Shown here: in pieces, positions 36,753 through 47,781 of the stretch | Layout of the letters: the number at the start of each line of letters is the position of its first letter | Position numbering within the stretch: position 1 is the stretch's first letter | Origin: Candidatus Bathyarchaeota archaeon | GTDB taxonomy: Archaea > Thermoproteota > Bathyarchaeia > Bathyarchaeales > DTEX01 | Direction of reading: 5' to 3' | Length of the DNA stretch: 64,000 nucleotides | NCBI GenBank assembly: GCA_963714275.1 | Contig: CAVQNT010000002.1 | Coordinates: 384,001 to 448,000 of the forward strand | The notes under the pieces: generated by a model | What the model was told of the DNA's origin: nothing | The model's database searches: none | The model's input: only the letters and a program-made list of their open reading frames with translations | Position numbers and translations under genes: made by a program

Positions 36753-37289
36753 TTGAAGAATAGAGAACATTACAGATTCAAAAAACTTGGGATGAAAAGC
36801 ATGAAGAAAGTCCTTTTTCTATGTACACACAATTCGGCACGGTCACAAATGGCTGAAGGGTTGCTTAGGCATTTTTATGGTGAAAAATACGAAGTCTTCA
36901 GCGCAGGTTCAAGCCCGACGCAGGTTCATCCCCTCGCCATTAAGGTTATGGCTGAGATAGGGATAGATATTTCAAAGCAGACTTCCAAGAGCATTGAAGA
37001 GTTCCAAAATAAGGATATTGACATAGTTGCATCAGTGTGCAGCAGCAGCCCGAAAATCATCTGTCCATTTTGCTCCTCACCGATGCTTCGAGGCAGACCT
37101 GAGATAATTGACACGACATTACCTAGAGCAAAACATTATCTCCACCATGGTTTCAGTGATCCTTCCGAAGTGGATGGAAGTGATGAGGAAAAGATTGCTG
37201 CCTTCCGACGCACAAGAGATGACATCAAAGAGTGGATATTCGGTTATTTTGCCGATCTAAAGACAGACAGCTCGAATAGTCGTGCATAA
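36753..37289 (+). CDS. arsC: Arsenate reductase, LMW-PTPase type
   Basis: FLCTHNSARSQMAE, SAG, DPS, FRRTRD; likely start near 36792-36801. Confidence 0.88.
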   Translation: MKNREHYRFKKLGMKSMKKVLFLCTHNSARSQMAEGLLRHFYGEKYEVFSAGSSPTQVHPLAIKVMAEIGIDISKQTSKSIEEFQNKDIDIVASVCSSSPKIICPFCSSPMLRGRPEIIDTTLPRAKHYLHHGFSDPSEVDGSDEEKIAAFRRTRDDIKEWIFGYFADLKTDSSNSRA

Positions 37290-37522
37290 AACATTTTGAG
37301 TCTAGCTGAGAAACACTGGTCGCGAGTTCAACGGAGCCAAAAAATTTCAAAAACGTAAGTGATGTACCATTATAATGTCCAAATATTAGTAATATGATCT
37401 ATTTGAACTATCCAAGTCAGATTTCAATAAGTCTTTCAGCAAGTCGCAAACTCCTCTCCCTTTTTATATATAACATTAAATAACAAGTTAATCTGCAGAA
37501 ATTTTTTGGTCGGGATTAAAGC

Positions 37523-37699
37523 ATGTATTATCGAAAAGAAGGCAAAATGTTTTTACAGAAAGAAGTAACAATTGGAAAAATGGAGAAAGGTTACATAATA
37601 ATTTTAAGAACCAAAAAAAATCCGGAGTTTCCAGATGAAGATGTGTACGTTACTCTCGATGAGGTACTAAAAAGAGCCAAAGAGTTTTTAGAAGAATAA
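37523..37699 (+). CDS. Small hypothetical protein (58 aa)
   Basis: MYYRKEGKMFLQKEVTIGKMEKGYII...TLDEVLKRAKEFLEE*, read manually. Confidence 0.5.
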   Translation: MYYRKEGKMFLQKEVTIGKMEKGYIIILRTKKNPEFPDEDVYVTLDEVLKRAKEFLEE

Positions 37700-37943
37700 A
37701 CCCTCTAGGGGTCTTTGATAATTTAGACATAACATTTGCTTAAATGAAACGATATGTGTCATAATGTTGCAGATTGTTTAACTAGCTGTATGGAATCAAG
37801 CAGAGAAAACGTAGTGTCTGTTTCCCAATGTTTCTGAATTGGTGCACAGCGTTAGGTGGCACGAAAACTACATATCCTGGTGTTAACTGTTTCTCAGACA
37901 ATATTGGTAGAAGAGGAAGAGCAGTTATCGGCGGGTTTAAGGT

Positions 37944-38963: not shown

Positions 38964-39839
38964 AAAAAGGTTCTTCAGAACAGCAGATAGCAAGTCACTA
39001 GATAGCATCTTGACAGGATGGCTTAAAAAAGGGAAGCTGAAAAATGGCATAAATCTTACGGGGAAGAATAATGACAAGCGCGCACGGAAATCCTGATGTT
39101 CTTTCAAGGGAGCTTCTACATTCAACACTTGATTATAGCTAAGCTGGCTTTGGGATAGTGTCTTGACTATTCTTCTTGACCCACTACTTTCAATGTATAA
39201 CATGATTACTTCGGGTTCTTTGGGGATTTCTTCTCTTATTCTTCTTAAGAATTCGTCACTGTGAATCCAGTCGCGTACAAAGAATAATAGGTAGCCATAT
39301 TTTACTTCGTTACTTACCTTCTTCTTTGGATCCTTAGTTTGTTCAAGCGCTGCATAGTCACTTAGTTTTAGTCTGTCCCACTTCATGTGGTGGATTGCAT
39401 CCCCAAGGTTAGAATTGTGCTCGACTAGGTTGAATTCAATGGCGATGAACGTTTGTTGTTCTTTCTTAATGTCTTCAGTTTTACTGGCACGAAACAACCT
39501 TTCATTGACTAATGTTGGATTCCAAATGCACAGGTCGAAATGGCCACGCGACCCTTCCGGCTCGATTTTTAGATGTTTCCTGCTGTATCTTTCTTTCGTT
39601 GGGTACTCCTTATGCAATAGAATGCTCTTCTTCTGGTCACATGTTTCAAATATGCCATCCAAACCAGATTGAACCAATTTACCATAAAGTTGGTTGTAGA
39701 GAAAGCAGTGCAGATCACTCTCGATATAAAACAAAAATGGATTCGAAAGGAACGTCTCTACCGTTTTACTAATGCATTCTTTTACAATGTCCACTAATAC
39801 TTTATCCTTAGATGGCACATTCGCTTCCGATTGCTTCAA
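38955..39839 (-). CDS. Putative PD-(D/E)XK nuclease-like protein
   Basis: ESDLHCFLY...EYP...GHFDLCIW...AIEF pattern; K is not conserved; the C-terminus may be read-through. Confidence 0.5.
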   Translation of the reverse strand: MKQSEANVPSKDKVLVDIVKECISKTVETFLSNPFLFYIESDLHCFLYNQLYGKLVQSGLDGIFETCDQKKSILLHKEYPTKERYSRKHLKIEPEGSRGHFDLCIWNPTLVNERLFRASKTEDIKKEQQTFIAIEFNLVEHNSNLGDAIHHMKWDRLKLSDYAALEQTKDPKKKVSNEVKYGYLLFFVRDWIHSDEFLRRIREEIPKEPEVIMLYIESSGSRRIVKTLSQSQLSYNQVLNVEAPLKEHQDFRARLSLFFPVRFMPFFSFPFLSHPVKMLSSDLLSAVLKNLFSA

Positions 39840-39894
39840 TTCAGACCCTCAGTATTTATAATTATTTTAATGATATCTTATTGGTGGTTATAAA

Positions 39895-40488
39895 TTGTGG
39901 ATGGAATATCGAATCGCAGTAAATTTTGAGAGACAAAAAGAAATTATAAAACAACTTAGAAAACACATACAAGATTTTGAAGAGCATGGGCTTATACAAG
40001 GATACGCATTTAATCATTATTACAATTTGTCTAGTGAACCAGACACACTACGCATAAGATTCGATTATCAAAATGAAGATGGACAGAATATAGTTGAGAA
40101 AGAGTTTGAAAAGGAGGTTAACCAACTAGTTCCACATTATACTTTGCAGAAATGCCCTTGGGATAGTGATGAGGAAGTTTTAAAGGCTTATGAGTTGGGT
40201 TCAAGATGCGCCTTTCTCTTTTGGGAGTTGATGGAAAAGGGAAGATTTTCAGTAAATTACCTTTATGATTTCCTGCCTTCATTGGGACAGCAGTCTCAGA
40301 TAAGCCTTAATTTTCAACGGCATTTTAATCACGGCATCATGAACTCACTTGGTGTTCCAAAGATACCGCAAGAACAAATAATCCACTTTATGGCTTTATT
40401 GGAAACTACAGGATCTTTAAACTGCTCAGAATTATGTAGTAACATTCAGAAAAATCCATTACTATCAAGCCTTATCATAATTCGTTAG
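39895..40488 (+). CDS. Hypothetical protein
   Basis: 197-aa ORF; LRIR and H-x-x-x-N-x-LG motifs. Confidence 0.6.
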   Translation: MWMEYRIAVNFERQKEIIKQLRKHIQDFEEHGLIQGYAFNHYYNLSSEPDTLRIRFDYQNEDGQNIVEKEFEKEVNQLVPHYTLQKCPWDSDEEVLKAYELGSRCAFLFWELMEKGRFSVNYLYDFLPSLGQQSQISLNFQRHFNHGIMNSLGVPKIPQEQIIHFMALLETTGSLNCSELCSNIQKNPLLSSLIIIR

Positions 40489-40567
40489 TTTAGGTAATGC
40501 AACCCTTAATGATTTCAAGTCCTTGAATTCTGCTTGGATCTATTCCGGCTTATAAATTTGTTATAGT

Positions 40568-40778
40568 GAGCTAGAAGGAAGTTGCAAAACACACATTCCT
40601 TCTTCTTCTGGTTTAGAAGTAGTAGTTCCCGCAACTCACGGGACTACTACAACTAGATTAAACATTCCAGATAATCTTCTAAGTGTTGAATAATCTCTCA
40701 GGATTTTGTGTGTTGCGTTGAATGCTTTCTAACAGTAAAGTCTTAACCAAGCTGAAGTTTTGAGGCTGAGAACAATCA
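40568..40778 (+). pseudogene. Decayed copy of the hairpin-containing reading frame (hairpins U1, U2)
   Basis: ELEGSCKTHIPSSS-GLEVVVPATHGTTTT-RLNIPDNLLSVE*SLRILCVALNAF*Q*SLNQAEVLRLRTI; homologous to segments at 42460-42990. Confidence 0.65.
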
Positions 40779-40898
40779 GAAGTTGTTGCCCACTCTGTTT
40801 CTGTAAGATCAACATCTTCTAGTTTTAATATTCAACAGAATTTGCATCTGTAGACCTTTTAAATGATAGAAATCAAATAATTGTATCGAATAATGATC

Positions 40899-41856
40899 AT
40901 GAAGAAAAGGAAAAAAATCGCCACTGCATGTGCTTTCATGACTATTGTAATAGTTTTTGTTATCTTCTGCGTACCTATGGGTTTCCACCTATTCAATGTT
41001 TTTTGGGCAAAGAGACATTATAAACACTGTCAAGGAAATTACCGCGAACGAGACTAACTCGGTCGCCATTCTAAACAAAATTGCAAATTGGCTTAACAAT
41101 CACATTACGTATGATGCGCATGGATTCTATTTTTATCCGGTGCCTCCGTTATTTCTAGGCAGAAAGGTTCCGGCAGATCCTGCCTGGACAATGACCATTA
41201 GATGTGGAGCATGTGAAGAAGAAGCTGTCCTATGCACAGAAATGGTCCGCTCAATAGGGATGCAGGCCAGAGTAGTGTATAATCCCGCTGAGGATCACAC
41301 TTGGTGTGAAGGCCTGATTAATGGGTCATGGGTTCATTTTGATCCGGGACTCTCGGAAGATAAGAGATTTAATAACCCCGGCTTTTCTGAGTGCCCTAAA
41401 CCGAATGGATGGTGTAAAGAACTGTCCTATGTTTACTTTATGAATGCTGACGGTAAGCAGAATGATATCACCAAGACATATACCGACATTGGAAGACTTA
41501 TTGTTCAAGTCGAGAAAGATGGTCAGCCGGTAAAGAACGCTAGAGTTAAAATAGAAAGCAGATTCCTGATGCTAAACTACCCATCTTCCTACAGTCAACC
41601 CCAATTCTGCTTAGAAAATCGGACTGACGACAAGGGTCAATGCATATTCGATTTGGGAGGTAACAATTACACTGTTAGTGCTGAATTAGGGACTATCCTT
41701 GGATATAGAAATGAAAGCATCATAAGCCTCAAAGAGAACAGCAAGACATCCGTGACCTTAACTCTGTCCAATTTCTCTCCCCTCATGCCGATTGATTATG
41801 TCGTGGCAACATTGGTTGTAGCACTCGCTGTTACCTTGTTACTATTGAAACCATAA
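40899..41856 (+). CDS. Membrane-anchored transglutaminase-like / peptide:N-glycanase-like protein (frameshift near 5' end)
   Basis: RCGACEE, DHTWCE and WVHFDP triad; GWCKELSYV...DITKTY; hydrophobic N- and C-termini. Confidence 0.75.
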
Positions 41857-42119
41857 TGATCTACAAGAAATTAAAGATGCATACTCCCAACAAAAGAGGA
41901 GACAGAAATCCCAATAGCCATGATATCAGGATTTCAAGAGACTCTTAGGGAAAATGAATTCATACTCAATACAGAAAATTAGCCTATATTAACCCACCAT
42001 CTGTAAAGTATCATTTTATTTGTCCGACTCCATCCCACAAATTTTAGACTTGATGAACGGGGCAGTTATGGGTTCTATTCTTATCGACTTATCTAGCGTA
42101 GAATCTAGCTGAGAGCTGA

Positions 42120-42380
42120 CTAGCGTATGTTTCTCAAAAAATCGAAAAGGATGTTATTGAAGGCATAGAAAAATTCTGTTCAGAAGACTTAGATTATACC
42201 TCATGGGGTAACTTTTTGGTTTTATACATACTTTCAGTAATAACATTCTGTCATGAAAGATTCACTCGTTACCCCGACCGTGAATTTGGTCCTTCAGACT
42301 ATCAAATAAGTTTGGGAATTGTCGATGATATTCAATCCATCTGGAGCGAACTTGAACAATTATTTTCACTAATCGAATAG
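42120..42380 (+). pseudogene. Start-less 86-codon fragment, HEPN-like C-terminus
   Basis: Open frame LAYVSQK...LYILSVITFCHERFTRYPD...DY..SLGIV...LIE*, bounded by CTAG motifs. Confidence 0.55.
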
Positions 42381-42459
42381 CTAGCAAAAATTATTGAAAT
42401 CGACTAAATAGATGATTCCGTCTTTAAACTCAATGATTTAACCGATAAAGTCAACATCA

Positions 42460-42990
42460 TCAAAAATATCATTTCAGAAGTAGTCCCCGCAACTTACAGG
42501 ACTACTACTTTTAAACCAAACCTCTAAAGAGATGTTCAAACCAAAAGAAGTTGACCACACGAAAACAGCGTGGTCAACAACTACTGTTCCAATACGCAAC
42601 TTTTTTGTGAGTATGTTTTCTCTTTTTTCCAAGAATTCTTCAATAAGATTAATAAACTTACGTTCATGTACAGAATTTTAAGTGGTTCCTCATCTCTTGG
42701 TAGTTCATCTGGAATAACAAAATTAGAAGAAGAAGAAACATCCGAATCCGCATTTTCTTCTTCTACTATTCCTAACCGTCTATTTTTATGATTAACATTA
42801 TCAACCGTTTTTCCGAGAGCTGACAGTAACGACCTCATTAAATTTATATTCAAACAAAAATCTATAAAGCCTACTCTGTGTTCGGAAGATCAGAAGGGAT
42901 ACTTAAATCAGAAGTAGTAGGATTCTATGTTTTGCTATGTCCTACTACTTCTAAACCATGCTTCATTTTCTGATAAACAGTCATGTCCGA
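42460..42990 (-). repeat. Tandem array of four decayed copies of a hairpin-containing reading frame (U3-U6)
   Basis: Inverted repeats at 42479/42499 (8 bp), 42550/42570 (9 bp), 42728/42754 (11 bp) and 42910/42940 (13 bp), each within a G-x-x-(VVV/EEE)...(TTS/SSS/STS) frame. Confidence 0.75.
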
Positions 42991-43037
42991 AGTGATGATC
43001 AAGGGTTGGAAGTAAGATCAACGGTTCAGAGGATTGA

Positions 43038-43391
43038 TCATGCCTGGTTTGACTGTTTCAGGTTTCTTTGCTGCCAGAAAGAGCAAGATGGCTCCAGCAG
43101 ATGAGTCCAGGTATGCTCCCGTTGACAGTACATTTTCTCTTTGCCAAGTCGTTCGCAGAGGGCTAAAACGTTAATCACCGGCTCAGGCTTGACGAGGGGA
43201 TCAAGAGATTTGGCGGAAAGGATCTCTTTGCAGAATGTTTTTAACTTCTCCATGTCCTCAGCAATAATGTAGATCCCGTTTCGACCGCAGAACCTGCAGT
43301 TTCCGCATCGTTTTGCCTCTTTTTCAAGGTTTATTTTTGGAAAACGACCTTCAGCAGGCTTCATAATAATAACTAAATATGCGTAAAACAT
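43038..43391 (-). CDS. Hypothetical Cys-rich protein
   Basis: RCGNCRFC...YC...CSFW; divergent from the element's operon. Confidence 0.55.
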   Translation of the reverse strand: MFYAYLVIIMKPAEGRFPKINLEKEAKRCGNCRFCGRNGIYIIAEDMEKLKTFCKEILSAKSLDPLVKPEPVINVLALCERLGKEKMYCQREHTWTHLLEPSCSFWQQRNLKQSNQA

Positions 43392-43645
43392 AAAAACTTA
43401 ATCCTCCCCCCTCACATCCCGATAGTTTTTGTATTAAATATAGAGTTTAAAAATAATAAAAACTTCAAAATTTGTCATTATTAAAAAAATAATTCTACCT
43501 TGTGACTATTTTCTTTACGAAGATAAAAAAATGAACTAATTTTAATTTTTAACTTTTATTTAAGTATTTAAATCATACCTAATAGTTTTTCTATAATTGT
43601 AGATTTATATACTACTAGTTCACGAGTATTTGACCGTGGTTAATC

Positions 43646-43822
43646 ATGAGTCAAAAGCAAGCCATGTTATGGGCTAGAGTTGACATAAACATCAAAGAAA
43701 TAGTTCACAAACTAGTGGACTGCAAGGGTATCACTATTAGTGAATATGTCCGAAGCCTAGTCATTGATGACCTTGACAGAAGAAATGTTTTCACAACAAA
43801 ACTAAAAGAGGAATTACGATGA
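43646..43822 (+). CDS. Ribbon-helix-helix (CopG-like) protein, 58 aa
   Basis: MSQKQAMLWARVDINIKEIVHKLVDCKGITISEYVRSLVIDDL...; not in ORF track. Confidence 0.75.
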   Translation: MSQKQAMLWARVDINIKEIVHKLVDCKGITISEYVRSLVIDDLDRRNVFTTKLKEELR

Positions 43823-43945
43823 GTGAAAAGACCGTTACAACTGGAAAAATGGATCTTAGAAAGCTTATTCGTAGAGCTTGATGAGATTCTCCGAATTTTG
43901 AAAGGCAAGGCTCCAGAACCAAGCAGGCAGAAGAGTTTAGAATGA
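43823..43945 (+). CDS. Small hypothetical protein (40 aa)
   Basis: GTG directly after the RHH stop; its TGA overlaps the next ATG (ATGA). Confidence 0.45.
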   Translation: MKRPLQLEKWILESLFVELDEILRILKGKAPEPSRQKSLE

Positions 43946-44286
43946 GTAAAATAGAAGGCTCCTTTGATGTAATTCTTGCAAGACTTAGGGATTGGCTTCA
44001 AGGCGCCGAGGAGCTGAAGAACCTTCTTGACGAGTATCTTTCAGTAAAGGTTGAAACTGAAGAAAGGGCTAGAAAACACAACTGGGATCCTGAGAGGATT
44101 AGTTGGATTCAGAAAGAGGGACCTTCAGGAACCTATTTTCTAGCTGAGAAACAGGATTCACAGGATTTTAAGGCTGCGGTTCAAGACCTAGAGAATCATA
44201 AAGGAAAGATGAACCTGGGTGAGTATTTCTATTGGAAATTCGATTCAGGCGCTGTTGGAAGGAAACCAAGCAAAAAAGGAAAGTAA
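43942..44286 (+). CDS. Hypothetical element protein
   Basis: 114 aa, in operon with RHH and Rep. Confidence 0.7.
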   Translation: MSKIEGSFDVILARLRDWLQGAEELKNLLDEYLSVKVETEERARKHNWDPERISWIQKEGPSGTYFLAEKQDSQDFKAAVQDLENHKGKMNLGEYFYWKFDSGAVGRKPSKKGK

Positions 44287-44292
44287 ACTCTA

Positions 44293-46236
44293 ATGAGTTC
44301 TCAAGAACCACGAAGCGACATTAAATACAGCATTCTAGATTCAGGAACCAAAGGAATAGCAATAGGACTGGAAGAACGCTTCTTAATTGTTGAGAAACTT
44401 AAAGGTGCATGGAAGACTCAAACTAATCAATATTCAAACAGACGAAACGCTAACAGCATGGAACTATGTTAAAAACCTAGCAGACCTGAGAACAGCATCG
44501 AAATATAAGGAGCTAAGGGAAGCTATCGGATTTGAAAACCTAGAAAAAACATTGATAGCCATCGAAAACAATGCTGACGAGTTTGACGAAAACAGAGAAT
44601 CAGAGACACAAACAACAGAAGAAACACAGGCATCAGGAACATGTAACGAAGGATATTTTGAACTCATAATAAACGAAGAATTTAATCCTTGCTTTCTTGT
44701 CTGTAATAAAGGGCATTTTACAGTTATGGATTCTGTGGGCTTAAACAGTCACATTTTTGTTCCTAAAACCTTGAGACAGATTCCTTATTTACCTTATAGT
44801 TTTTACGAGGATTCCTTACCAAACATGGAAGATATTTTCAGCAAGGTTTTTGACGAATTTGACGCATATTGCGATGTTGAACCAATCTGGAAGCATGTTC
44901 TAACTGCAAGTGTTTTGCTTTCATACCAACAGGAAAAGATTCAGACAGTTCCTTACCTCTACCTGTATGGAGATAATGAGTCTGGGAAAACCACAGTTCT
45001 GAATGTTCTCAATGAATTGTGTTATCGTCCTATGTTCGGTGTAACTGTTCCTTCAGTGACATCTACGGGTACCTTGAGGATTCGGACTGTATCCCAACAA
45101 TTCTAGAAGACGAGATACAGGGTATTGAGAAAGACGAGAATAAAGTTAAAATCTATAAGTCAGGCTACAAAAAAGGTGCATGTGTCCCTAGAACCGTGTT
45201 GCTTGAACATGGGAGAGAAATCCAGTATTTTCGCACATTCAACTTTAAAGCTGTTGCTGCTGAAAGAATTTCAACAGTAAAAGGCTTCGTTGAACGGTTC
45301 ATTTTTCTTCCAATGGTTCAAGGCTTTCCAAAGAAGGAATGGGCTGACAACAGTGTCAGCGATTCTGCAAGGTTCCATGATCTTAGAAACATGTTGCTTA
45401 AGTGGAGACTGTTAACAAGAGATGAACCTTTACTTAACTTGGAATTACCGTTTAAAGGACGCATTAAGGAACTATGGAAGCCACTGTTACAGTCCGTTTA
45501 TGGACTTAAAGCGTTTCAGACTTTACTAGACTTCGTAGAATCCCAGATTAAGGAACGGTTAGAAACAAGACAGGGAACCCTAGAAGGAAAAATCGTTAAA
45601 GTTGTTGGAGAACTTTTCGACGATAAACCTATCCCATTCACTGATATTTGGGAACAGTTAAAGAATGACCTTGAGGGAACAATTGACAACAAAAAGAACT
45701 ATGTGATGCTGACCTCGGAATTTGACGAAGTTACTAAGTCGAAGGTAGGATATCGGTTAAGAGAAATTCTTAGCGGTGAACGGGAAACCGTTCGTATCGA
45801 AGGTACACCTACTAAGGCTTGGATGTTCGACCGTTTTAAACTTGTGCGGATATTGAAGAAATATGGCTATGATGAGCTTGTTACCAAGTTACCAAGTGTA
45901 CCGAGTTCCGAGGGTATAGAGGACATTATTCATAATAACGACTTATCCAAAATGGGCTTTAATTCCGAAAAAAACCACGATTTACAAGATGCGAATGTGG
46001 ATAAAAAGCCTTCTATACCTCAGGAAGTCGGTAACGTCGGTAACTCGGTAACAGAAGAAATCAAAGCTGTTTTTCGTTGGAAACATGTGAAACCTAGCGA
46101 AAAATGTCCATTATGCGGAACATTGGCAGTTGAATATGAAGTAACCCTTGACGATGAAACATTACTGAGACGATGTTCAAACTGCTTCGATGACTTAAGA
46201 AAAAAATTCATGAACGTTGAATGGAGCGAATATTAA
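44293..46236 (+). CDS. Putative replication protein: P-loop NTPase/helicase-like with C-terminal Zn ribbon (two frameshifts)
   Basis: YLYGDNESGKTT Walker A, ILEDE Walker B, SGYKKG, ER; C-terminal CPLCG...CSNC. Confidence 0.7.
45880..46052. repeat. Long imperfect inverted repeat with 8-9 bp iterated units inside the rep gene
   Basis: gttaccaa-gttaccaa-gtgtaccga-gttccgagggtatagagg (45880-45922) pairs with ccttctatacctcaggaa-gtcggtaac-gtcggtaac-tcggtaac (46009-46052). Confidence 0.75.
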
Positions 46237-46412
46237 AAATGCGTCCAAGAAGCCAATTTTTTAAGGGTAGAGAAATTAGGCTAAGAACTGTGACTAGTGT
46301 GGTGATGAATTTTAATTTGGAGACCCAGTTTTTGGTAGGTTAGCTAGGGCTATTGGGGGGATCGCAGGACAGTTGAACACCTATTTCCTAATAAACGACG
46401 TCCTCACAATGG

Positions 46413-47672
46413 TTGTTTTTTACTTTAACAGTCGTCAAACAGTGTGGTAAAATAGTGATTTGCCCTAATTGTAGTTCAATAGATTCCCAGCGGAATGGAC
46501 ATCGAGAAGGCAGGCAGAGGTGGCGATGTAAAAACTGCGGCAGAGAATACTTGGAACCTATAAATGATGATGATTTGAAGTATTCTGAACATGACCCAAT
46601 AGTTCAGACTAGGTCTTTAAGTGACACCATGCCTACTGGTCTCTTGAGCCAGAGCTGTACTCGCAGGAGTAGTCCGCAGTCAGCGGGTCTCCTCGGGCTG
46701 GATAGCCTGGCACAAGAGAAGGAAGAAGGAGAAGTGCAGATATGCGAACAACTACAGAACAGCGACCTGCTGAAAAACTTTCCTGACCAGATAAAACCCA
46801 AACTACTGCAATACGCAACAAAAGAATGGAGTAAGGGACGATCAGTTAAAAGCGTTGAAACATACATCCGCAACCTTAAGCAACTAGTGAAACATGGCGC
46901 TGACTTATTCGACCCAAACTCTGTTGCAGAAACCATCGCTCAAAATTCCGAATGGGCTAATGCGACCAAAGTCAACAAAACTGAAGCATACGACTCATTC
47001 CTAAAATTTCAGGGCGGCTTTTGGCAAAAACCAAAGTACAGGGCTGAACGGAAGTTGCCTTTCCTGCCACTTGAAACCGAGATTGATCAGCTAATCGCAG
47101 GGACAAGTAAGACCGTTGCAGCAGCACTTCAGGTTGCGAAGGAAACCGCGGCTAGACTAGGAGAAATAGGAAGGCTGAAATGGACAGACGTAGATTTCGA
47201 GCGAAGGCTCATTGCGGTAAATGAGCCTGAAAAAGGCAGCAACCCCAGAATAATACCGGTCACAGCAAAATGCGTTGAGATGCTCAATCACCTTCCAAGG
47301 AAGGGCGAACGAATCTTTAAAAACATCAAATGCGCAAGTGCGACGCTGATTCAACAACGAAATCACCTCGCGTATAAACTGGGCAACCCTCGCCTTAGGC
47401 AAATTCACTTCCACACACTGCGGCATTGGAAGGCTACCATGGAATACCACAAACGGCCAGACCCGTTTTACCTCAGAGATTTCTTGGGCCACAAGAACCT
47501 AAAGAACACCGAGATCTACGTGACTGTTGAGCGGACAATCTTTCAGACGCAATCAAGCGACTTCACCGTAAAAGTGGCTTCGACTCTTGACGAGTTCACA
47601 AAGCTGCTTGAGGTCGGCTTCGAGTACGTCTGCGACTACGGCGACAGGAAGGTCCTGCGGAAACGCAAGTGA
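46413..47672 (+). CDS. Tyrosine recombinase/integrase with N-terminal zinc ribbon
   Basis: R (TAARLGE), K (PEKG), HTLRH, LGHK, TEIY; N-terminal CPNC...QRWRCKNC. Confidence 0.93.
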   Translation: MFFTLTVVKQCGKIVICPNCSSIDSQRNGHREGRQRWRCKNCGREYLEPINDDDLKYSEHDPIVQTRSLSDTMPTGLLSQSCTRRSSPQSAGLLGLDSLAQEKEEGEVQICEQLQNSDLLKNFPDQIKPKLLQYATKEWSKGRSVKSVETYIRNLKQLVKHGADLFDPNSVAETIAQNSEWANATKVNKTEAYDSFLKFQGGFWQKPKYRAERKLPFLPLETEIDQLIAGTSKTVAAALQVAKETAARLGEIGRLKWTDVDFERRLIAVNEPEKGSNPRIIPVTAKCVEMLNHLPRKGERIFKNIKCASATLIQQRNHLAYKLGNPRLRQIHFHTLRHWKATMEYHKRPDPFYLRDFLGHKNLKNTEIYVTVERTIFQTQSSDFTVKVASTLDEFTKLLEVGFEYVCDYGDRKVLRKRK

Positions 47673-47781
47673 AACCGAAAAAATATAACTAAAAACCCAA
47701 AAACTAAACAAAAAGGTTTTTTAGTGTCGTTTATATCCTTTTGTGAGAAGATGATTGAAAACTTGGATTAAAGAAAGGTGA

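Follow-up and report, generated by a model that had tools for sequence, protein, structure and literature searches.

Linker palindromes in decayed genes of a candidate small-terminase family, with a flipped hairpin loop as the probable scar of old recombination, in a Candidatus Bathyarchaeota genome

The cores recognised by tyrosine recombinases, such as loxP, FRT and dif, and the attC hairpins of integrons share inverted arms around an asymmetric spacer that sets direction. Hairpins with perfect arms and a reversed spacer have also been attributed to template-switch mutation (Ripley model): inversion of a spacer between unchanged perfect arms longer than 9 bp has been described in yeast coding DNA (PMC8604942), inverted loops of 7-8 nt in RNA-gene hairpins (PMC8794818), and homogenisation of the arms is documented in both reports. 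Among tailed phages, the pac site of P22, described as a 22-bp asymmetric sequence, lies inside the small-terminase gene, and those of Sf6 and SPP1 lie near or in terS; the same source describes small terminases as proteins of about 15-21 kDa bearing a helix-turn-helix (HTH) domain at the N-terminus, a flexible linker and a helical oligomerisation core (PMC9611059). For viruses of Bathyarchaeia, a dedicated paper names, in its available text, only the large terminase subunit (10.1101/2023.08.24.554615). Here we describe a 64,000-nucleotide stretch of a Candidatus Bathyarchaeota archaeon (assembly GCA_963714275.1, contig CAVQNT010000002.1, positions 384,001 to 448,000; hereafter the window), in which two hairpins, U2 and U3, 1,858 bp apart, carry loops of opposite orientation relative to their flanks. 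The explanation we regard as probable is that these palindromes belong to dead small-terminase-like genes, that recombination between their arms took place long ago, and that the flipped loop is the scar this left, as opposed to a functioning switch.

The two hairpins are:

40609..40651, + strand: U2, canonical linker palindrome encoding GLE-VVV-PATHG-TTTT, with 8+4 bp arms and the 7-nt loop CAACTCA
42476..42518, no strand assigned: U3, chimeric palindrome with its core plus-oriented as in U2, a right flank that is the minus-strand RFGLK-VVV coding flank, and a degraded inner stem

The initial annotation had reported a hairpin loop flipped relative to its flanks between two copies, and recomputation bore this out. 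The inner 16 nt of U2 match the reverse complement of those of U3 at 13/16 positions, against 6/16 in the same orientation; on the plus strand the cores form a direct repeat identical at 27/30 positions, and the outer 18-nt flanks (TGGTTTAGAAGTAGTAGT and TGGTTTAAAAGTAGTAGT), on opposite strands, agree at 17/18. A repeat search returned both relations, as D1 (direct, 46 nt, 78%, spacing 1858) and I5 (inverted, 18 nt, 94%). Shuffling excludes a chance origin of the flank and core matches: a 17-nt flank, with up to three mismatches allowed, occurs three times in the window against 0.19 expected, a count reached in none of 100 shuffles, and a 12-nt core occurs twice against 0.25 expected, a count reached in one of 100. 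Folded as DNA, U2 and U3 have z-scores of -4.3 and -3.6, with an equally good fold in 0/200 shuffles. The inner stem of U3 has changed from CGGG to CAGG. Read on the plus strand, U3 gives a U2-type core, E-V-V-P-A-T-Y-R-T-T-T.

Placement of the surrounding sequence shows that the hairpins, described as sites in the initial annotation, are not autonomous: each is part of a decayed small-terminase-like gene, in the stretch that codes for its linker. U2, U3 and four further palindromes all fall where a multicopy viral gene family encodes this linker; in six-frame reading, the flank TGGTTTAGAAG codes for GLE/GLK, a conserved motif with which the HTH domain closes, and the arms GTAGTAG and CTACTAC read Val-Val and Thr-Thr. 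Segments of the window were placed by six-frame reading together with a family hidden Markov model (HMM) built from 29 homologues, yielding at least five decayed partial gene copies (one on the plus and four on the minus strand) and six palindromes between 40.57 and 42.96 kb. In what follows, C1, C2, C3, C4, C6 and C7 denote contigs of the source genome, C1 carrying a paralogous array. Apart from U2 and U3, the features are:

40573..40603, + strand: palindrome hpA (AGAAGGAA...TTCCTTCT), read EE..SSS, first of a tandem pair with U2; weak DNA fold (z -1.27)
40610..40830, + strand: decayed small-terminase-like gene segment comprising linker and first part of the C-terminal domain, contiguous with U2; three TAA stops
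42550..42578, - strand: palindrome Z (GTTGACCAC...GTGGTCAAC), read VVDH..VWST, within the minus-strand fragment 42564-42662; DNA fold z -4.8
42671..42835, - strand: gene fragment Y, running from the last part of the HTH into the first part of the C-terminal domain; HMM positions 26-78, E 6.5e-7
42724..42768, - strand: palindrome of fragment Y, reading EEE..SSSS; DNA fold z -4.7
42853..42978, - strand: gene fragment U4, HMM positions 39-79, E 8e-4; palindrome with 13-bp arms at 42910-42952 and a stop codon in its loop

All these family segments are interrupted by stop codons. On the plus strand, HMM positions 47-102 match 40610-40780 (E 6e-12), and the segment downstream of U2 is 77% identical to C6:505740-505897 over 158 nt, while hpA is homologous to C1:27039-27080 and C7:34965-35008 (86%). 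Since U2 runs in frame into a canonical C-terminal domain, as the copy at C6:505722-506024 also does, U2 represents the unrearranged state. The minus strand carries a succession of four partial units (U4, Y, Z and U3) within 500 nt, each centred on a palindrome, and Z and U3 form a tandem pair just as hpA and U2 do. The match of fragment Z itself (42564-42662) to the HMM is weak (positions 22-55, E 2.6), and the arms of its palindrome are identical in C1. The U4 hairpin folds with a z-score of -5.0 and has a flank complementary to that of U2 at 17/17 positions (inverted repeat I4).

The history of the flipped loop is read from contig C1. There, C1:27081-27473 aligns with window positions 42479-42871 at 86% identity, C1:27081-27127 aligns with U3 at 95.7% over 47 nt, and C1:27039-27123 aligns with 40576-40663 at 76%. 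In a three-way alignment, C1 consists of an hpA-type left flank, the U3 core and the U3 right flank, and its left side is a canonical, plus-oriented hpA unit at the canonical spacing. Because the U3 junction is common to the window and to C1, two paralogues that have diverged by 14%, the flip is old and fixed, and does not amount to an orientation polymorphism. Loop orientation, which was to be tabulated among homologous loci, could be compared among the paralogues of the source genome, where U2 and probably C6:505 are canonical and U3 and C1 chimeric; the DNA of 40300-43000 found no match in 40 genomes of relatives, nor did the core pattern in metagenome contigs or genome contigs.

We infer that U3 is a head-to-head fusion of plus- and minus-strand N-terminal gene fragments on a single palindrome, in which the loop of the plus copy was kept. 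The arms read alike on both strands, and in two gene copies of opposite orientation they would thus stand as direct repeats; if such convergent copies recombined in their arms, two N-terminal flanks would be joined head to head, producing U3, and inheritance of this junction in both the window and C1 would make the flipped loop the trace of one old event. The initial annotation had left the choice between a micro-inversion and recombination within the arms. Arm recombination fits best, as U3 joins a plus core to a minus flank, whereas a pure spacer flip leaves the left unit of C1 unexplained. The locus resembles described template-switch mutations in its perfect arms, in the reversal of an asymmetric spacer relative to its flank, in its location in coding DNA and in the change of several adjacent residues at once (PMC8604942, PMC8794818). 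It differs from them in that one flank also changes identity, two N-terminal flanks standing head to head, and in that the U3 state is common to two diverged paralogues, an arrangement that looks like recombination between copies and not like a local flip. A recent fold-back duplication at the hairpin was considered and found unsupported, the flanks in C1 not being reverse complements, by eye, beyond about 18 nt.

Between U2 and U3 lie the remainder of the dead plus-strand gene and two further features:

40881..41856, + strand: Transglutaminase-core gene (Pfam Transglut_core, E 1.2e-14), initially called PNGase-like; cargo of the bracketed interval
42120..42380, + strand: stop-free stretch of 86 codons, initially called a HEPN-like fragment; no family found

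The HEPN-like label has to be dropped, as 42120-42377 and 41993-42109 matched no Pfam family at E up to 1. The 1,858 bp separating U2 and U3 are missing from C1, and a second recombination, between the directly oriented cores, would relate the two loci. Either the lineage of C1 lost the 1,858 bp by deletion, or that of the window gained them when a circle with one hairpin, the C-terminal part of the gene and the transglutaminase gene recombined into a C1-like site. These are one reaction run in opposite directions, and both therefore favour excisable over invertible. Of the earlier proposal that the bracketed genes might be excisable or invertible, the first half is thus retained, in that the comparison with C1 points to one or more losses or gains of the interval at the hairpin, and the second is not, the cores being direct. 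Two metagenome runs, each containing 5% of the sequence words, contributed nine short contig pieces from relatives, none of which spans U2 to U3, and no rearrangement joint was found in these pieces. The transglutaminase gene itself seems to be split: a 58-codon open reading frame (ORF) at 40881-41057, with a membrane-like N-terminus, and the main ORF (40957-41856) overlap in different frames. In one of the metagenome runs (X1), the contig of a relative is one base short at 40967, and the copy in the window may be frameshifted or carry an assembly indel.

Several observations weigh against this account of the rearrangement. The left flank of U3 has no detectable family signal and is uninformative, so that inversion of the spacer in place is indistinguishable from recombination. 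The left flank of C1 is no closer to the window than is C7:34965-35008 (86% over 44 nt); C1 is not proven to be the empty site of the window locus, and U2 could be a mere unrelated neighbour copy. In-place inversion, by which an intermolecular template switch at replication would have flipped the inner segment of a minus-oriented U2-type palindrome at U3 and left its flanks as they were, nevertheless seems unlikely to us. It can draw on the yeast and RNA-gene precedents cited above, on the minus-strand reading of U3, which gives family-like arms on both sides (RFGLK-VVV ... TTSE), and on an 11-nt string to the left of U3 (TCAGAAGTAGT) that is common to the equivalent side of U4. Nine of these 11 letters, however, are arm sequence; the flipped segment would have to take in the 4-bp inner stem as well as the loop; the minus strand downstream of U3 lacks the C-terminal part of the gene, so that the keeping of both flanks is not demonstrable; and the C1 core, joined leftward to a canonical plus-oriented hpA unit, is not explained by a pure flip.

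A more active role, in which the palindrome is the core of a site-specific recombinase, perhaps the tyrosine integrase at 46413-47672, and 40651-42475 a cassette still excising as a circle, is improbable. As in loxP, FRT, dif and attC sites, inverted arms enclose an asymmetric spacer in U2 and U3 (12-bp arms and a 7-nt loop), and the two, directly oriented, flank a small segment with genes; C1, although a diverged paralogue, looks like the empty or deleted form, its arrangement being that of an excision product; the integrase lies 3.9 kb away; and several family copies in the genome are broken at or beside the palindrome. Unlike the fixed spacer or overlap region of 6-8 bp in lox, FRT and dif sites, however, the loops of 7 nt in U2 and U3 become 10-28 nt, unconserved, in homologues. 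The sites also lie within a protein-coding gene, with neither an IntI-type integrase nor a cassette array. The inner stem of U3 is degraded and the cores differ at 3/30 positions, of which one falls within the 7-nt loop; damage is apparent in the cassette genes; like an ordinary island integrase, the one here lies next to host genes; and among the relatives' contigs of the two metagenome runs there is no circle or empty-site junction. Least probable of all is an assembly artefact, with a chimeric U3 junction or 1.86-kb interval produced by repeats that misled the assembler. The assembly has 10 contigs and 3.7% contamination, and the region is rich in short inverted and direct repeats, but the same junction occurs independently on C1 at 14% divergence, a relative's contig in run X1 also spans 42465-42604, and the repeats, at 30-45 nt, are shorter than reads.

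The gene family to which the fragments belong was recognised by the peptide pattern K-I-x-R-L-G-L-[EK]-V-V, 5-8 residues, T-T-T-R-L-x-I-P-D-D-L-P-S-V-E-E-A-L, found by tblastn at about 10 places in the 2.64-Mb genome. Its proteins, of about 150 aa (140-185 aa), comprise a GcrA-like N-terminal HTH, a linker and long helices, and were found in 33/151 genomes of the order, often in several copies. An AlphaFold2 model (mean predicted local distance difference test, pLDDT, 75) shows a three-helix HTH at residues 9-46, a low-confidence linker at 47-69, unstructured with pLDDT below 50, and helices at 70-85 and 91-158. The N-terminus resembles the DNA-binding domain of GcrA (PDB 5yiu; Pfam PF07750), with which it shares the three-helix HTH (PDB profile E 2.4e-4; Foldseek target TM 0.82 over 44 residues); the resemblance is limited to the first ~50 residues, the Pfam score of 18.8 lies below the cut-off of 26.9, and the remaining protein and the gene context differ. 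A Terminase_6N large terminase is the next ORF directly downstream in 20/29 loci, and also follows the family gene in two defective proviruses of the source genome (L041 and L042); the fragments in the window have no such ORF downstream. Size, domain layout and gene position upstream of the large terminase agree with those of small terminases, and the family is on this synteny and architecture a candidate small terminase (TerS) of tailed viruses and proviruses of Bathyarchaeia. Its neighbours in the Atlas are 'hypothetical protein' clusters from viruses and Bathyarchaeota.

The two defective tailed proviruses, at C2:277385-287379 and C6:341001-352735, are related to each other (83-91% identity over >9 kb), and in both the small-terminase-like gene is disrupted at or beside the palindrome, one by a frameshift just past the hairpin and the other by six stops in the N-terminal part. 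The only intact family copy in the source genome, C7:215255-215731, has no large terminase downstream and lies near genes for glutamate dehydrogenase and a DegT-type aminotransferase; possibly it is an orphan, or has been domesticated.

In the coding DNA of most of the 29 homologues, the stretch immediately after R-L-G-L forms a hairpin, so that the palindrome recurs at the same gene position in distant relatives. Perfect Watson-Crick stems of 9-14 bp are present at the linker in 14/29, the longest elsewhere in the same genes being 5-8 bp, and resampling of synonymous codons gave p<0.05 in 13/29 and p<0.01 in 8/29. A set of 27 IMG/VR contigs, picked via C-terminal peptides and thus independently of the hairpin, gave stems of at least 9 bp in 16/21 scored members, with p<0.05 in 16/21 and p<0.01 in 11/21; the other six were missed by the motif expression and remained unscored, though their peptides show the same pattern. 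The arms vary among lineages yet stay complementary, and the peptide changes along with them. They include GTAGTAG/CTACTAC, GTTGTTG/CAACAAC, GTCGTCG/CGACGAC, CAACAACA/TGTTGTTG (QQQ..CCC) and GAAGAAG/CTTCTTC (EEE..SSS); VVV..TTT arms occur with GTA/TAC, GTT/AAC, GTC/GAC or GTG/CAC wobble pairs, and further readings are VVDH..VWST, SFDSQ..SFDSQ and a triple VVTT form. On this codon-level evidence the palindrome appears to be maintained as DNA across the family, pairing at synonymous sites exceeding the level that the peptide imposes. The strong hairpins of this type in the source genome (C1:26913, C1:27079, C6:505858, C6:349071 and those of the window) all lie within family gene fragments. In one subfamily (L012, L013, L015, L017, L018 and L020) the palindrome is absent.

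The sense strand folded more stably than the antisense in 14/29 homologues (Wilcoxon p 0.26). As both strands fold equally well, a duplex palindrome fits better than a sense-strand RNA structure, which was rejected as the main explanation; no X-XXY-YYZ slippery site of a frameshift signal was seen by eye, nothing having been computed for it, and no RNA families or tRNAs were found in the window. A dispersed repeat of the REP (repetitive extragenic palindromic) or MITE (miniature inverted-repeat transposable element) type was likewise rejected, AGAAGTAGTAG occurring six times in 2.64 Mb against seven for its reversed control. The loops of the homologues are 10-28 nt long and unrelated in sequence. 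Many of those in L136-L154 and L038 share a DNA motif around TAAGG..CTAT or CCTAGG, encoding K-G/A-Y-R after D-P, and the loop is thus under some constraint in part of the family. An intact 173-aa member (L163, G136:C4:14101-15000) has a lengthened linker, VVVTTVVTT..VVTT, with two tandem copies of the arm GTTGTTACAAC pairing with one partner, a natural multi-arm variant. Searching IMG/VR with the arm pattern mostly led away from the family, 71/80 matches fetched being unrelated to it; those examined were terminator-like hairpins in AT-rich phage contigs. Among them are hairpins starting with AGAAGTAGT that recur in L072/L073, L111/L118, L049 and other contigs of one metagenome, which are AT-rich phage contigs of very large size; in some cases two lie within 1-3 kb. 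They are flanked by A-runs and T-runs, again terminator-like and unrelated to the gene family.

As for the function of the palindrome, the option we tentatively place first, by analogy with P22, is a signal within the gene for recognition by the terminase or for the initiation of packaging. Like the P22 pac site, it would be a cis element within an HTH-bearing small-subunit gene, upstream of the large terminase and conserved as DNA beyond the needs of the protein, and it is found at the same gene position in 14/29 and 16/21 homologues of the two sets. It differs in the archaeal host, in the lack of a match between its protein and any known TerS family, in being an element known here from sequence alone, and in its form, since a palindrome with 9-14 bp arms and a 10-28 nt spacer replaces the 22-bp asymmetric sequence described for P22 (PMC9611059). 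Close behind comes, as a possible but doubtful alternative, neutrality: a linker rich in Val and Thr would have seeded an inverted repeat that perfects itself, with template switching keeping it perfect. A recombination site, though also a near competitor, is unlikely, and some other reason for the palindrome less likely still. A number of results tell against a functional DNA element in a small-terminase gene. No solved or curated TerS family was matched: Pfam and NCBIfam yielded sub-threshold GcrA only, Foldseek against PDB no match at E<=0.001, and the PDB profile search HTH domains only. No contig end lay at the palindrome in 18 viral contigs that carry the gene and were inspected for position, and there was no cos-type hint, which says little. 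With RNA energies, in which G-U pairs are allowed, synonymous resampling gave a weak signal (mean z -0.69, below -2 in 4/29). The Val..Thr peptide by itself accounts for much of the pairing, since the genetic code makes Val (GTN) and Thr (ACN) codons reverse complements at two of three positions. Many loops encode a recurring K-G/A-Y-R peptide after D-P, suited to a beta-turn in the protein, and a protein-level reason may lie behind part of the palindrome pattern.

These last results are also what an absence of any function of its own would lead one to see, a reading to which we give limited credence: the Val/Thr-rich linker would supply two thirds of the complementarity free, template switching, for which arm homogenisation is documented (PMC8604942, PMC8794818), would perfect the arms, the often turn-like D-P-K-G-Y-R of the loops would answer to the protein, and the rearrangements would be due solely to the fragility of palindromes. 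The peptide is nonetheless not kept (EEE..SSS, QQQ..CCC, VVDH..VWST, SFDSQ..SFDSQ) while the pairing is, and the linker is modelled as unstructured. Between the dead arrays of the window and C1, moreover, the arms, with coordinates set by hand, are identical at 62/63 positions (98%) and the other positions at 288/345 (83%; Fisher p 6e-4), a difference that would fit selection on a DNA element and homogenisation of the arms alike.

The palindromes lie in a low-GC island (39000-47700; 0.35-0.40 against 0.45-0.50), at the right edge of which stands:

46413..47672, + strand: tyrosine integrase (Pfam Phage_integrase, E 1.1e-17; phrog_1)

The island ends in this integrase with an InsA-like zinc ribbon. 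No other recombinase lies close by, and nothing was shown to connect the integrase with the hairpins; a host proteasome/exosome operon adjoins it, with host genes from 47782. No convincing direct repeat was found that could serve as att repeats of the island. The ORFs at 43038-43391, 43942-44286, 44387-45106 and 45019-46236 have no assignment, and kinship of the last, of 405 aa, to a 405-aa ORF beside another family copy was rejected, the two being unrelated. Beside the island, 36807-37898 and 39149-39845 are 91% identical to stretches of C4 (114367-115463) and C3 (26427-27123), and represent either segmental duplications of recent date or copies of a different element.

The flipped loop is a scar, fixed among the remains of proviruses, and no evidence points to a switch. 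The more interesting result is the co-varying, conserved palindrome within a candidate small-terminase gene of archaeal viruses; a search of titles and abstracts returned no description of a palindrome in an archaeal small-terminase linker. It offers a natural case of a DNA palindrome and the peptide it encodes changing together, and shows how a palindrome in a multicopy gene lets copies in opposite orientation recombine like direct repeats, giving head-to-head gene fusions and deletions. A bolder proposal, to which we attach a low probability, is that the palindrome is the packaging-start signal of tailed viruses of Bathyarchaeia, and the integrase-bearing island a satellite-like element whose dead gene fragments keep perfect palindromes as mimics of it and which is packaged by a helper virus. 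If so, the DNA signal would dictate the linker peptide (VVV..TTT, EEE..SSS, QQQ..CCC), and the rearrangements at U2/U3 and C1 would be by-products of terminase cuts or of recombination at such signals. How the tailed viruses of archaea pick out their own DNA for packaging is poorly understood; two handles on this question are gained here: a candidate small subunit with a GcrA-like HTH and no family entry, and a candidate cis element within its gene.

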